Below, piece by piece: positions 9,036 to 41,435 of a stretch of DNA of 64,000 nt. The notes under the pieces were generated by a model. The model had not been told where the DNA came from and made no database searches. It saw only the letters and a list, made by a program, of their open reading frames with translations. The DNA is taken from assembly GCF_058153355.1 (NCBI RefSeq), contig NZ_CM177019.1. The stretch is one strand, 5' to 3'. Every line of letters begins with the position of its first letter. Position 1 is the first letter of the stretch. The translations under genes and the position numbers were made by a program.

Positions 9036-9637
9036 TGATGAATAAAATCAGACTTTATATTCCTCCGTTAATTCTTGGTTTTGTTATTGTGCCGTTGTTG
9101 GTGTGGCCGACGGTGGTTGCGCTGGCTGCTTCTGTTATCACGCTGAGTTTTCTGGGAGAGATACTGTTCTCTATCCCGCTCATGATCAGGCATATTTCGC
9201 TTCTGCAATTACAACTATGGTTATCGGCTGAATATGCGCTTTTCTGCTGTGCAATGGTGGGCGTTGGTTGGCAATTTGCTCGTATAACTCAATCCGAATC
9301 GAAAAGCAGACTGCATTGTTGGCTGGTATTTGCACCAGTTTATTTCTGGTTGCTCCTGTGGAATATCATTTTCTATGTCGCGCCAGCGAATATTGCGTTG
9401 CTGGAGAATATGCGCAGTTTCTTTCTGACAGTTGTCTGGCTCCCACTGAATTTTTCGCCATTTTGGTCTCAACCGTGGATTGACTTTGTCGGTCCAATAA
9501 GCGCACAGCTTGGTTTTGCGTTGGGATATTATTGCCAGTGGCGTAGCAAAAATAGAAGCCAGATACGGAAGTGGAGTGAGTGGGGAACGTGCCTGAGTTT
9601 TGTTACGTTGGGTATGATGGCGTGGGCTTTGCGGTAA
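9035..9637 (+). CDS. polytopic inner-membrane protein of unknown function
   Basis: 200 aa ORF whose start overlaps the upstream stop (TAATG), implying translational coupling; several hydrophobic segments rich in W/F/L. Confidence 0.6.
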   Translation: MMNKIRLYIPPLILGFVIVPLLVWPTVVALAASVITLSFLGEILFSIPLMIRHISLLQLQLWLSAEYALFCCAMVGVGWQFARITQSESKSRLHCWLVFAPVYFWLLLWNIIFYVAPANIALLENMRSFFLTVVWLPLNFSPFWSQPWIDFVGPISAQLGFALGYYCQWRSKNRSQIRKWSEWGTCLSFVTLGMMAWALR

Positions 9638-9689
9638 TTCCCTGACTTAAAAAGTAGGTCAGATTGTTGACAAAGTGCGCTTTGTTCAT

Positions 9690-9798
9690 GCCGGATGCGA
9701 CATGAACGTCTTATTGGCCTACAAGACCATGCAAATTCAATATATTGCATAAGCCACGTAGGCCTGATAAGCGTAGCGCATCAGGCAGTTTTTTGTTT
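9690..9798. repeat. REP / BIME-like palindromic units
   Basis: gccggatgcgacatgaacgtcttattggcctac and gtaggcctgataagcgtagcgcatcaggcag resemble the E. coli REP consensus, located 3' of glpD. Confidence 0.5.
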
Positions 9799-9849
9799 AT
9801 CATCAGTCGCAGGTCAGATTGAAATCTGACCCGGCCACCTTACGTTAAT

Positions 9850-11355
9850 TTACGACGCCAGCGACAACCTCTGCTGCGTATACTCCCCCAGCCACTGACT
9901 CACACGGGATTGTTGCTGCGCATTCAGCCACATGCCTTGTTTTGTGCGACGCCACAGGGCATCGTCGGCGCGGCGGACCCATTCGTGATCCACAAGGTAT
10001 TTCAGCTCCGCTTCGTAGAACTCATGACCGAAATCTTCCCCGAGATCGCCTATCGCCCCCGCATTGCCGAGCAGCAGCTCGCTGTTGCTGCCGTAAGTGC
10101 GCGCGTAGTGACGTGCCAGCGATTCAGTCAGGAACGGATAACGGCGGCGCAAGCGAGCGGCATAATCGTCGCGGTCGCCCTCGATGGCACCACCCGGCAG
10201 CACGCTCTCTTTCGTCCACGCCGGGCCAATGCCCTGATAATACGGCGTCAGTTTTTCCAGCGCGTGCTCCGCCAGTTTGCGGTAGGTGGTCAGCTTACCG
10301 CCGAATACCGATAACAGCGGAGCTTTGCCGTTTTCATCATGGATATCGAGCGTGTAATCACGGGTAATGGCCTGCGGCGAATCGGACTCATCATCACACA
10401 GTGGACGCACGCCGGAGTAGGTCCAGACGATATCATCCCGGCTTAGCGGCTTTTTAAAGTGCGCGTTATACACTTTCAGCAGGTAATTGATTTCACTCTC
10501 TTCAATCTTCACCGCTTTCGGATCGCCTTTATACTCCACATCGGTGGTGCCGATAATGGAAAACTCGTCCATCCACGGGATCACGAAGACAATACGTTTA
10601 TCTTCGTTTTGCAGAATGTAGGCTTGCTTCTGGGTATGCACACGCGGCACGACAATATGGCTGCCTTTGATCAGGCGAATGCCATAAGGTGAGGGTAGAT
10701 GCATACCGTCGTCGAAGAACTGCTTCACCCACGGGCCGGTGGCGTTCACGAGGCCGCGCGCTTGCCAGCTATATTTTTTGCCGGTATCGATATCTTCCGC
10801 TTCCACAATCCACAGGCCGTTTTCGCGGCGAGCAGAAGTGGCACGAGTACGGGTAAGCACTTCACCGCCTTTACGCACCACCATCTGGGCGTTGGCGAGT
10901 ACCAGACGGGCGTCGTCTACCCAACAGTCGGAATATTCGAATCCGCGCTTAATTTCCGGTTTTAACACTGAATTTGCGCCAAAACGCAAACCGGTTGATC
11001 CCGGCAGGCTGGTGCGTTTACCCAGATGATCGTACATAAACAGACCAATACGGATCATCCACGCCGGACGCAGACGCGGGCGATGCGGCAGGCGAAAACG
11101 CATCGGGAAAGCGATATGGGGAGCCATTTTCAGCAACACTTCACGTTCAGCCAGCGCCTCGCTGACCAGGCGGAATTCATAGTGCTCAAGGTAGCGCAGG
11201 CCACCATGAATGAGTTTTGAACTGGCGGAAGAGGTCGCACAAGCGAGATCCTGCGCCTCCAGCATCAGCACGGATAAACCGCGTCCAGCGGCGTCTGCCG
11301 CGATACCAGCACCATTGATGCCGCCACCTATCACAATCAGATCTTTGGTTTCCAT
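9850..11355 (-). CDS. glpD: aerobic glycerol-3-phosphate dehydrogenase
   Basis: 501 aa from METKDLIVIGGGINGAGIAADAAGRG (FAD-binding motif); track ORF is extended 5 codons. Confidence 0.94.
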   Translation of the reverse strand: METKDLIVIGGGINGAGIAADAAGRGLSVLMLEAQDLACATSSASSKLIHGGLRYLEHYEFRLVSEALAEREVLLKMAPHIAFPMRFRLPHRPRLRPAWMIRIGLFMYDHLGKRTSLPGSTGLRFGANSVLKPEIKRGFEYSDCWVDDARLVLANAQMVVRKGGEVLTRTRATSARRENGLWIVEAEDIDTGKKYSWQARGLVNATGPWVKQFFDDGMHLPSPYGIRLIKGSHIVVPRVHTQKQAYILQNEDKRIVFVIPWMDEFSIIGTTDVEYKGDPKAVKIEESEINYLLKVYNAHFKKPLSRDDIVWTYSGVRPLCDDESDSPQAITRDYTLDIHDENGKAPLLSVFGGKLTTYRKLAEHALEKLTPYYQGIGPAWTKESVLPGGAIEGDRDDYAARLRRRYPFLTESLARHYARTYGSNSELLLGNAGAIGDLGEDFGHEFYEAELKYLVDHEWVRRADDALWRRTKQGMWLNAQQQSRVSQWLGEYTQQRLSLAS

Positions 11356-36695: not shown

Positions 36696-38764
<2,069 letters not shown>

Positions 38765-38766
38765 AT

Positions 38767-38804
38767 AAAACAGGAGGCGAAGGTGCCTCCCGTTTTATTT
38801 TGTG
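38767..38804 (+). terminator. rho-independent terminator after envZ
   Basis: aaaacaggaggc-gaa-ggtgcctcccgtttt stem-loop followed by a T-rich run. Confidence 0.5.
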
Positions 38805-38927
38805 CACTCAGTATCTACTGAATGAATACGGTTTCAGACATCGGCACCATACGAAGTAAAGTGTACTGTAAGCTGATTGCAGGCTAGCGTATCCTGATTA
38901 GTAAAAGCACACTAAAGGAATAGCTTG

Positions 38928-40211
38928 ATGCAACTTACCAACGAAGAACAAGTACAGATTGCTCGTATAAAAGAAAAAATCCCACGCATTGCCGCACTGG
39001 ATCCTGAATGTAAGTTATTCGGTTCTGAAGGTTGGAAATATCAATGGCCGAAGCCTGCCAGCGAGGCGGAAATAGCTTCCTGGGAGAAAAAACATAGCGT
39101 CACTTTGCCACGGGAATATCGAATTTTTCTTCGCTATATCGCTAATGGCGGTCCGGCACATGCCTACGGTCTTGAATCTTTAGGCGGTACAGATATTTAT
39201 GGCGATATAACAAAAGAAAGCCCTGTACCGCTTTATATGACGCAGCAGGATGTTGATGTGTTGAATGCAGGCCGTACAGAAGATGATGAAGAATATAGTT
39301 TTTTTGACGGCGCATTGACCATTCTCACCCTGGGATGTACTTATGATATTTGCCTGGTGGTGACGGGGCAGTATCGCGGAAGGTTAATGCTGACTGATGG
39401 TGATGAAGATTATCCGTTTGATTTTATATATGATAAAAATTTCCTCAACTGGTATGAACGCTGGCTGGACGATTTTATTGCTGGCATGAGTATGAAGGGT
39501 TTCGATAGAAGTTTGCCAGGAACGCAAATTCAACTGCGTGAGTGGTTTTTAACTGAGAAAATCCCGGATTTACGTAGATCCATTTTATTCTCGCTATGCC
39601 GTTTTCCACAGATAGAACCCGAAACATTTGCCCTTTGGGAACATGTTTGCCGCACAGAGAATGATAAAGAATTGTGTGAAGAGGCATTCATAAGATTACG
39701 CCAAAAAAAAGTTTCTTGTGCTGCAGATATTTTTCGACTCTATTTTACAATGCCAGATGAATTACGTGATATTGCTATTAAAGATCTCCGTTTTGCCTGT
39801 AGAGATAGTGTGGTGAATATTGAGGATTATATTCATTCACTGTTAATAATAATGCCTGAACTTGACGATGACACTCTATCCTCAGCTGTCTTTGCTGTAC
39901 GAGAAACAGAGTATAATAAATATGATACTTTTCTGCCGCTTCTCGAACGTATCACTGATGACCGTCAGCAAACATTATTGTGGGCGATGAGTAAGGCGCC
40001 TGATTTCAATGAAAGCCGAGGATTCGTTGAGTTGGTATTACCGCTTTTTGCATCATCAAAGATGGAGAATGTAAGGAAGGCTATTTTGTTGCTCATTGAA
40101 GTTAAAGATAATCGTATTCCACCATTGGTTGATGAAGCTGCAACTCGTTTCCCTGAACTGACCATTTTACGAGAAAACTACTATCTCAGGACGTGGGGAC
40201 ATAAGCCATAA
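38928..40211 (+). CDS. SMI1/KNR4 (SUKH-1)-like protein with C-terminal helical extension; putative immunity-type protein
   Basis: 427 aa from the ATG at 38928 with Shine-Dalgarno AAGGA. N-terminal motif EIASWEKKHSVTLPREYRIFLRYIANGG matches the LPxxYxxFLxxxNGG hallmark of the SUKH family. Visibly AT-rich; no counterpart at this site in K-12. Confidence 0.65.
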   Translation: MQLTNEEQVQIARIKEKIPRIAALDPECKLFGSEGWKYQWPKPASEAEIASWEKKHSVTLPREYRIFLRYIANGGPAHAYGLESLGGTDIYGDITKESPVPLYMTQQDVDVLNAGRTEDDEEYSFFDGALTILTLGCTYDICLVVTGQYRGRLMLTDGDEDYPFDFIYDKNFLNWYERWLDDFIAGMSMKGFDRSLPGTQIQLREWFLTEKIPDLRRSILFSLCRFPQIEPETFALWEHVCRTENDKELCEEAFIRLRQKKVSCAADIFRLYFTMPDELRDIAIKDLRFACRDSVVNIEDYIHSLLIIMPELDDDTLSSAVFAVRETEYNKYDTFLPLLERITDDRQQTLLWAMSKAPDFNESRGFVELVLPLFASSKMENVRKAILLLIEVKDNRIPPLVDEAATRFPELTILRENYYLRTWGHKP

Positions 40212-40248: not shown

Positions 40249-40779
40249 ATGATCAGGGAACATATTCAGCAAGCGATAAATAATAGGTTAGCATTTGATG
40301 GCCCATTCAATGTTGTTCCTGAACCTGCAAGCACTGCGTTTGATAGCCGGATCCCGACATTGAAAAACGGTGTCTGGCAGAAGGCCAGCCCTATGTTGCA
40401 GGCGCGTTTTGCACATTGTGGACGTTGGTTAAGCGCTACACATGGAAGCTGGCTAAGTATAAGTGACATGGAAACGCTTTGGCAGGAACACATAGAAGAT
40501 ACGTTTCTTGATGAAATCAAAATGAATGCTGTAGCTTCAAGTGATAATTGGGATAACCATGCCTTGGGACTATTTCGTTCTCATCGCCTGTCACTTTTTG
40601 CCGGTAGTGATTACATTTATGAAATGGTTTTTCTCCTTTGGCTAGATAGTACCGTTGAGCCAGAGGTCTGGGTTTATGACTGCAATGGGGAATCACGTTA
40701 TAAAGATCTTAATGATTACCTGAATGCATATATTAATGATGACGTAAGCGCCTGTGAGCGCTCCTGGCGAGTAGAATGA
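40249..40779 (+). CDS. hypothetical protein (island gene 2)
   Basis: 176 aa ORF with Shine-Dalgarno GGAGAG; AT-rich; stop overlaps the next start (ATGA). No family recognised. Confidence 0.55.
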   Translation: MIREHIQQAINNRLAFDGPFNVVPEPASTAFDSRIPTLKNGVWQKASPMLQARFAHCGRWLSATHGSWLSISDMETLWQEHIEDTFLDEIKMNAVASSDNWDNHALGLFRSHRLSLFAGSDYIYEMVFLLWLDSTVEPEVWVYDCNGESRYKDLNDYLNAYINDDVSACERSWRVE

Positions 40780-41402
40780 ATAGCCCCCCTTGCCCCTTTG
40801 ATCCACAAACCGCACATTACCTCGGTACAGTGCAAATCCACTACACCTCAACCACCTTCAACGCTGCCGTTAAGCATTATACCTATCACATTAAAAAGCG
40901 TTTTAAAGGGTTTAAATGGGGAATTGGTACCGCTGGCTTATTGGCTATATTGCCCATGATCCCACAATGGTTGAAACCTTCTCATGACTTTAAACTCAAC
41001 GCAATCAGTACGTTAATTCTTCTATTAATGTTGCCACTCCTCTTATCAATGTTCCTGTTAATCAGCAGAAGAATTAACGATTTTAAGTCAAAAACAAAGC
41101 AAGTTACTTTTACGAAACCCGTGCGTTATGCGTTTTATTTCGAGGGGATTGTTTTTTATGAATCTCATCAGCAGGGCATACTTCGCTGGGAAGATTTTTA
41201 TAGCATTGACTATGAAGAAGATTATTTGTGGCTTTTTCTGCATTTACCGAAGAGTTTTCCCAGAGAAGCGACGAAAGCGTTTTGCGATATTTTCATTCCC
41301 GCCAGCGCGATAAAAGCGCAGCCTGAACTGGATACGTTTTTTCGTGAAACACGCCACTATCTGGATTATCTGTTTGTCCCGTTTAATTCTGACAGAAAAT
41401 AA
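40776..41402 (+). CDS. hypothetical membrane protein, two predicted TM helices (YcxB-like topology)
   Basis: 208 aa; hydrophobic segments WGIGTAGLLAILPMIPQWL and ISTLILLLMLPLLLSMFLLI followed by a ~100 aa soluble domain; translationally coupled to island gene 2. Confidence 0.55.
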   Translation: MNSPPCPFDPQTAHYLGTVQIHYTSTTFNAAVKHYTYHIKKRFKGFKWGIGTAGLLAILPMIPQWLKPSHDFKLNAISTLILLLMLPLLLSMFLLISRRINDFKSKTKQVTFTKPVRYAFYFEGIVFYESHQQGILRWEDFYSIDYEEDYLWLFLHLPKSFPREATKAFCDIFIPASAIKAQPELDTFFRETRHYLDYLFVPFNSDRK

Positions 41403-41435
41403 AAAATCCCCCGTATCTGGTGAAACGGGGGATTT
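41403..41435. terminator. bidirectional terminator between island gene 3 and pck
   Basis: aaaaaatcccccgt-atctggtga-aacgggggattt stem-loop with A/T runs on both sides. Confidence 0.55.

Follow-up and report, generated by a model that had tools for sequence, protein, structure and literature searches.

A horizontally acquired islet between envZ and pckA of Escherichia coli carries a candidate orphan immunity protein of the SUKH-HEAT family

We analysed a stretch of 64,000 nucleotides of an Escherichia coli chromosome (NCBI RefSeq assembly GCF_058153355.1, contig NZ_CM177019.1; hereafter the window), in which a three-gene island interrupts the order yhgF(tex)-greB-ompR-envZ-island-pckA-yhgE-hslO. 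The subject of this study is the first of the three genes, gene 1, an intact open reading frame (ORF) with an ATG start that encodes 427 residues. RefSeq lists the product as WP_032185310.1, an "SMI1/KNR4 family protein" found in 18 complete E. coli genomes. An earlier note on this DNA had recognised a SUKH (SMI1/KNR4) domain at the N-terminus, had described the C-terminal region as long, helical and of an architecture that could not be assigned, and had suggested that the gene would be an orphan immunity gene or have a different role. Gene 1 and its parts are as follows.

38916..38920, + strand: Shine-Dalgarno sequence AAGGA of gene 1 (direct sequence reading)
38928..40211, + strand: gene 1, encoding the 427-residue SUKH-HEAT protein (ORF list; RefSeq coding sequence "SMI1/KNR4 family protein"; AlphaFold2 model with a predicted local distance difference test score [pLDDT] of 88.3 and a predicted template modelling score [pTM] of 0.78)
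38928..39047, + strand: residues 1-40, family-specific N-terminal helix (invariant R13, I14, K17) and loop (family alignment; helix 5-24 of the model)
39048..39482, + strand: residues 41-185, SUKH / SMI1-KNR4 domain with the invariant FLxWYERWLD helix at its end (Pfam PF09346 and PF14568; Foldseek)
39483..40208, + strand: residues 186-427, linker and HEAT_2/alphaRep-like alpha-solenoid of ~14 helices (family profile against the PDB; Pfam HEAT_2 in relatives; ARM/HEAT folds)

The N-terminal half is a SUKH domain by three kinds of evidence: profile, motif and predicted fold. Residues 45-75 read SEAEIASWEKKHSVTLPREYRIFLRYIANGG, with the LPxxYxxFLxxxNGG motif at residues 60-75. In the Pfam search that the earlier note had suggested, the protein matches SMI1_KNR4 significantly (PF09346, E=2.7e-6, residues 43-152) as well as SUKH_6 (E=3.4e-5, residues 46-169), and SMI1_KNR4 is matched by 19 of the 20 aligned relatives at E<=1e-3 (best 1.1e-11). 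The AlphaFold2 model, built on the alignment of the relatives, begins with a helix (residues 5-24), continues with a SUKH module in which helices combine with a four-stranded sheet (alpha+beta; 46-184), and ends in a solenoid of 14 helices (189-423, pLDDT about 90). A Foldseek search of the PDB with this model aligned the first half with the core of Knr4 (6qbr, 8aj2) and with YobK (2prv) at probability 1.0; the accompanying E-values are weak (0.03-0.07) because the query covers two domains. Model and fold search agree in giving a SUKH fold followed by an ARM/HEAT solenoid.

The long helical C-terminal region is likewise as described, with about 240 residues predicted as 14 helices, but it can be assigned after all: it consists of HEAT_2/alphaRep-like repeats, in a large family that the databases already label. 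In the Foldseek search, the second half aligned with designed ARM repeats, the HEAT repeats of COPI/AP beta-subunits, CpcE/F and E. coli YibA. The profile of the family matched alphaRep chains of the PDB at E-values from 5.8e-18 down to 1e-4 (profile positions ~305-428). Pfam HEAT_2 (PF13646) was found in relatives (2 of 20 at <=1e-3, 7 of 20 at <=0.1) and was not reached by the E. coli protein searched alone. The alphaRep match and the presence of HEAT_2 in several relatives therefore identify the C-terminal half as a degenerate HEAT_2-type repeat domain, which fills a gap in the annotation of this SMI1/KNR4 family protein. We also considered Imm30 (PF15565), because UniProt names a C-terminal fragment from E. 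albertii (92% identical) "Immunity protein 30 domain-containing protein" and Imm30 is mostly alpha-helical (PMC3482391). Membership was rejected: Pfam-A gave no such match at E<=10 for gene 1, the 20 relatives or the E. albertii fragment itself. A signal peptide and a transmembrane segment were looked for in the gene 1 protein, and neither was found. The product is thus predicted to be a soluble cytoplasmic protein, in which the model joins the SUKH domain in a fixed orientation to the C-terminal HEAT solenoid.

This architecture defines a large family. A profile search among 1.84 billion cluster representatives retrieved 496 proteins at E<=1e-30 (the size can also be put as about 500 clusters at 50% identity); among the best 150 of them, nearly all have 420-480 residues and cover the whole profile. 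Scanning 100,044 species genomes, we found 322 loci, and nearly all of the 80 that were fetched encode a protein of 440-465 residues covering profile positions ~6-415. AFDB50 holds many superposable full-length models, with template modelling (TM) scores of 0.6-0.76, from Paenibacillus, Actinomadura, Vibrio, Providencia, Deinococcus, Myroides and others. Members occur in Bacillota, Bacteroidota, Actinomycetota and Pseudomonadota, with a patchy distribution, and some genomes have tandem or multiple copies (loci L060, L061, L083). The invariant residues of the family lie in the N-terminal helix (R13, I14, K17), in the SUKH core and in the FLxWYERWLD helix that runs into the linker, where F192 and G198 are conserved across phyla. 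Mean pairwise identity is 47% in the SUKH half versus 30% in the HEAT half, and the two halves were never seen shuffled. An architecture kept across phyla, together with this pattern of invariant residues, implies that the two halves form one ancient unit and are not an ad hoc fusion. Hence, SUKH-HEAT is a large, phylum-spanning SUKH subfamily that carries a generic database label and is unstudied; our literature search found no paper on the SUKH+HEAT architecture. Extra-long members were inspected as possible carriers of toxin domains or other informative domains and rejected, the additional sequence being HEAT repeats or a membrane anchor.

The family also moves between genomes. In Paenibacillaceae (Paenibacillus, Brevibacillus, Cohnella), proteins of 441-447 residues are 88-95% identical between species. 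Similarity at the DNA level (81-89%) stops at the ends of the gene (about 1.33 kb) or of the pair that it forms with an adjacent endonuclease V (EndoV)-like gene (about 1.87 kb), and the flanks are unrelated. The gene has therefore spread across genera as a one- or two-gene cassette. This mobility parallels the behaviour of gene 1 in E. coli, where the islet stands in place of about 50 nt of the K-12 envZ-pck spacer in an alignment of the two. It is a 2.65-kb insert with a GC content of 0.39-0.44 (about 0.42), against about 0.55 in the flanks, and it is filled by three co-directional genes. The remaining features of the islet and its borders are the following.

38763..38800, + strand: intrinsic terminator hairpin of envZ (terminator scan; the K-12 alignment diverges right after it, placing the left boundary of the island at about 38805)
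40249..40779, + strand: gene 2, 176 residues, co-operonic with gene 1, divergent SUKH-like fold, member of an immunity family (37-nt gap; Shine-Dalgarno sequence GGAGAG)
40776..41402, + strand: gene 3, 208-residue membrane protein whose start overlaps the stop of gene 2 by 4 nt (ORF; transmembrane segment at about residues 76-98)
41406..41434, no strand assigned: GC-rich hairpin (terminator) between the stops of gene 3 and pckA (sequence)

The right boundary of the island lies at about 41450, a few bases short of the pckA stop, where the K-12 alignment resumes. In the alignment of the borders with the K-12 spacer we noticed no integrase and no repeats of the kind that flank mobile elements, though no repeat search was run. 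Genes 1 and 2 are separated by 37 nt, genes 2 and 3 overlap by 4 nt, and all three point the same way; by this arrangement they form an operon. The islet is carried by 18 of the 5426 complete E. coli genomes (98.9-99.4% identity). The spacer is uninterrupted, in its K-12 form, in 4074 of the 5426. It is interrupted in about 1350 (about 25%), and in the sampled rows of this group the insert is a RelE/ParE-NadS toxin-antitoxin (TA) pair. One genome, that of strain A30, has in the spacer a 346-residue protein that we had considered as a remnant of gene 1 and rejected as such; it is a variant of gene 3. Salmonella enterica has at the same spot a 152-residue ORF, two CdiI_5 (PF19929) genes and a gene 3 homologue that is 81% identical (locus L103). 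The envZ-pckA spacer thus occurs in several states, as a place where small conflict modules insert: the TA pair, the CdiI genes or the gene 1 islet. The literature search found no paper on an envZ-pckA island.

Gene 2 gives an indirect link between the islet and toxin immunity. In Pectobacterium parmentieri (locus L095), a homologue (56% identical) follows a PAAR-Rhs effector at a distance of 20 nt, in a type VI secretion system (T6SS) cluster that runs hcp-vgrG-DcrB-PAAR-Rhs, and so holds the canonical position of a cognate immunity gene. PDB and NCBIfam searches gave no class for the C-terminal domain of this Rhs protein. Another homologue, 57% identical, is part of a recombinase-flanked array with Imm19, SMI1_KNR4, Imm21, Imm32, Imm17 and DUF4304 (locus L098). 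In Superficieibacter, the gene following the gene 1 relative was tried as a gene 2 homologue and rejected, as the two are not homologous. Gene 3 has weak similarity to PycTM (E=0.006) and YcxB (E=1.9) and is confined to Enterobacteriaceae. Its place at the end of the islet is conserved also where other cargo precedes it, as in Salmonella, where the homologue comes after the CdiI_5 genes.

We hold with moderate confidence that gene 1 encodes an orphan immunity protein that acts in the cytoplasm by sequestering a toxin that enters the cell, and the islet is best read as a horizontally acquired, three-gene orphan immunity islet. This remains the best reading, one that the earlier note had also raised, on indirect evidence: the gene 2 family has members both behind an Rhs effector and within multi-immunity arrays, Salmonella has CdiI genes at the envZ-pckA spot, and a truncated close relative of gene 1 sits in a contact-dependent growth inhibition (CDI) array of Serratia. 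The location agrees with what is expected of orphan or multiple-immunity genes: gene 1 accompanies an immunity-family gene, in variable, low-GC, acquired DNA present in 18 of 5426 genomes. We also count for immunity the evolutionary pattern of the family, with its tandem or multiple paralogues, patchiness, low GC, split copies and cassette movement. Under this reading, a competitor would inject a toxin domain acting in the cytoplasm (a nuclease, a deaminase or similar) by way of T6SS, Rhs or CDI, and the gene 1 protein would bind and sequester it. The conserved SUKH cleft would form the centre of the binding site, and the HEAT surface, which evolves faster, would add or tune specificity and extend the interface. 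The analysis established the domain identities, the fold, how the architecture is conserved, the structure of the island, and the immunity-type surroundings of gene 2 and of the insertion site; the immunity activity of gene 1 and its target are what we infer.

Both scaffolds have precedents in immunity. YobK of Bacillus subtilis is a SUKH-superfamily immunity protein for YobL. Gene 1 resembles such SUKH immunity proteins (YobK; PF09346 / SUKH_6) in domain profile, LPxxYxxFLxxxNGG motif, predicted fold, predicted cytoplasmic location and orphan or multi-immunity contexts. It differs from them in being more than twice the usual length, in its conserved N-terminal helix and 240-residue HEAT solenoid, and in that its family has no adjoining cognate toxin gene at any locus examined. 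The C-terminal half resembles Imm-HEAT / HEAT_2 proteins (alphaRep-like, PBS-lyase-type; E. coli YibA 1oyz, CpcE/F) in profile and ARM/HEAT fold, whereas its repeats are degenerate and permanently fused to SUKH. SUKH and HEAT scaffolds have each been given as immunity-protein types for polymorphic toxins, separately (PMC3113570; PMC3482391). HEAT repeats are listed as a type associated with Tox-REase-7 and Ntox34 (PMC3482391), and we saw no link of the gene 1 family to either; the word "HEAT" is absent from the text of the founding SUKH paper. As for gene sets, the islet resembles orphan immunity islets and acquired interbacterial defence (AID) clusters: it is small and was acquired horizontally, its immunity-type genes all point the same way with no toxin gene among them, its chromosomal site is variable, and a gene 2 homologue lies in a recombinase-associated multi-immunity array. 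It differs from AID clusters in having only three genes, in showing no recombinase or repeats that we noticed (no repeat search was run), in the membrane protein encoded by gene 3, and in that protection by it is a prediction. If the orphan-immunity reading is true, the islet would be a compact example of E. coli gaining resistance to T6SS, Rhs or CDI toxins without the weapons. SUKH-HEAT would then be a large class of putative toxin neutralisers, with hundreds of clusters over Bacillota, Bacteroidota, Actinomycetota and Pseudomonadota. No established concept would change, and the biology would be that expected of accessory islets in Enterobacteriaceae. Grounds for further interest are the size of the family, its movement between genomes and the fact that its members consistently lie apart from toxin genes.

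The separation from toxin genes also weighs against the orphan-immunity reading, together with several related observations that we gather here. No recognisable toxin gene adjoins a family member in about 85 loci (12 placements of six homologues with Pfam annotation, 76 genome loci, and plasmid hits). Gene 1 itself does not occupy the position of a cognate immunity gene, directly downstream of a co-directional toxin gene: as the earlier note had observed, no toxin gene precedes it, and envZ with its terminator is directly upstream. The 64-kb window holds no gene of Rhs or CdiA size and no ORF of more than 901 residues. Loci L001-L091 were searched with BLAST for Rhs-like proteins, without a match. 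Among 125 upstream and 92 downstream co-directional neighbours, LXG, RHS, PAAR, DUF637 and Tox/Ntox were absent at the level of at least three members in the Pfam scan, for which the best 20 families were listed, so that families occurring once or twice could be hidden. Large proteins encoded upstream of some members were tried as toxins and rejected, since they are sortase-linked surface proteins (Sortase, DUF7601, DUF5979, CarboxypepD_reg) or T9SS-sorted (type IX secretion system), NACHT-like, RING-domain or DhaK proteins. None of the three island proteins had a useful match in PADLOC, PHROGs or NCBIfam (for gene 1, PADLOC gave no match and PHROGs gave matches at E>0.1 only). End-to-end conservation across phyla and the frequently solitary gene also fit a role independent of toxins. 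The case for orphan immunity, plausible from the context, is weakened by the absence of any toxin-adjacent family member. The earlier note had held that homologues never linked to toxin loci would argue against such a role, and the survey comes close to that situation.

On plasmid pAM01 of Serratia marcescens (locus L105, 7001-7627), a 208-residue SMI1/KNR4 protein shares 54% identity with residues 1-185 of gene 1 and stops directly past WYERWLDD. Its gene is part of a CDI orphan toxin/immunity array that also holds DUF637, polymorphic toxin type 17, two Imm31 genes, a deaminase domain and DUF596. This link is weak, the relative being truncated and lying among insertion sequence fragments and group II intron debris. 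Distant full-length relatives in Saccharibacillus and Capnocytophaga belong to long co-directional arrays of small unannotated genes (L009, L010), with one weak Imm-NTF2 match in the Capnocytophaga array. Across the family, SUFU, SMI1_KNR4 and DUF4304 genes recur among the neighbours.

The strongest rival, which we regard as fairly unlikely, is that the family consists of toxin-independent interaction or adaptor proteins, which would assist an endogenous partner as accessory regulators or chaperones. Both SUKH and HEAT serve generally as scaffolds for protein binding: yeast Knr4 works as a signalling hub, Syd is a SecY binder, and FBXO3 recognises substrates. An adaptor would account for the lack of adjoining toxins, for the strong conservation of the architecture and the N-terminal helix across phyla, and for the many loci at which the gene stands singly between housekeeping genes, as in the Pfam-annotated neighbourhoods of Klebsiella aerogenes, E. 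coli and Flavobacterium. However, an adaptor for an endogenous partner sits poorly with a gene that only 18 of 5426 E. coli genomes have and that is split in E. albertii. No operon partner is conserved across 78 loci, the largest cluster of neighbours comprising nine loci of related Paenibacillus species. The cassette has moved between genera, and in E. coli the gene shares an operon with a member of an immunity family, in a spacer where immunity and TA genes accumulate. These points, too, speak against the adaptor.

A second alternative is that SUKH-HEAT is a self-contained cassette that moves horizontally, confers protection and is never accompanied by a toxin, as opposed to classical cognate immunity, or else the antidote of an EndoV-fold nuclease toxin; we judge this unlikely. 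As such a cassette, the protein could be a broad neutraliser of a widespread toxin class, such as DNA-deaminase toxins, and in Paenibacillaceae EndoV repair could add a second layer.

The role of EndoV deserves its own consideration. At nine Paenibacillus/Cohnella loci, a gene for a 169-residue EndoV-like protein (PF04493) lies 15-20 nt upstream of the SUKH-HEAT gene (L033, L050, L055, L056, L068, L071, L072, L073 and L075; about 9440-11310 in each). The cassette formed by the two genes (1.87 kb) is 83-89% identical in DNA between species, with differing outer flanks. We consider it improbable, somewhat more so than the protective cassette, that the gene 1 family is at root the partner or inhibitor of an EndoV-fold nuclease. 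In one version, the EndoV-like product would be the original partner in a TA-like pair of nuclease and antidote; in the other, the two genes would act together against DNA-deaminase toxins, SUKH-HEAT binding the deaminase and EndoV repairing the deaminated bases. Either version would make the E. coli copy an orphan without its nuclease. The tight spacing at the nine loci speaks for such a partnership, as does similarity between loci that is confined to exactly the two genes. There is also a precedent in the B. subtilis operon ywqH-I-J-K-L, where an LXG toxin, its antitoxin and EndoV (YwqL) occur together (PMC8321402; PMC6364969). On the other hand, copies with and without EndoV are interleaved at about 90% protein identity, those without it being in other species and genera. 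The link is therefore optional, and a single origin within one clade may account for it. The enterobacterial, Bacteroidota and actinobacterial members have no EndoV-like gene beside them, and the EndoV-like protein resembles an ordinary repair enzyme with conserved motifs.

Very unlikely, finally, is a double immunity protein in which fused SUKH and Imm-HEAT-like modules each neutralise a different toxin: fusions of immunity domains have been described for polymorphic toxin systems, where HEAT is a listed immunity type (PMC3482391), and the HEAT half does evolve faster than the SUKH half, but the halves are never shuffled, and their full-length order, linker (F192, G198) and predicted inter-domain packing (pTM 0.78; TM 0.6-0.76 to AFDB models of distant members) are conserved across phyla, which argues for one functional unit.

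Further observations concern other members of the family. Just upstream of the SUKH-HEAT homologue in both Saccharibacillus (Bacillota) and Capnocytophaga (Bacteroidota) lies a DUF7638/DUF7639 gene (L009, 7026-7961; L010, 6492-7511), which may be a recurrent neighbour. Two relatives are broken: in E. albertii NBRC 107761 (L012, 10001-11287) the orthologue of gene 1 is divided into ORFs of 211 and 179 residues, and in Xenorhabdus stockiae (L087) a SUKH-HEAT relative is divided into ORFs of 130 and 157 residues. Both look like decaying, pseudogene-like copies. E. coli itself has a second SUKH-HEAT paralogue, whose protein is 40% identical, as a single gene between yoaA and yoaB (L006-L008, 8001-9275). 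It is present in 2 of the 5426 complete genomes, both of which also have the envZ-pckA islet.

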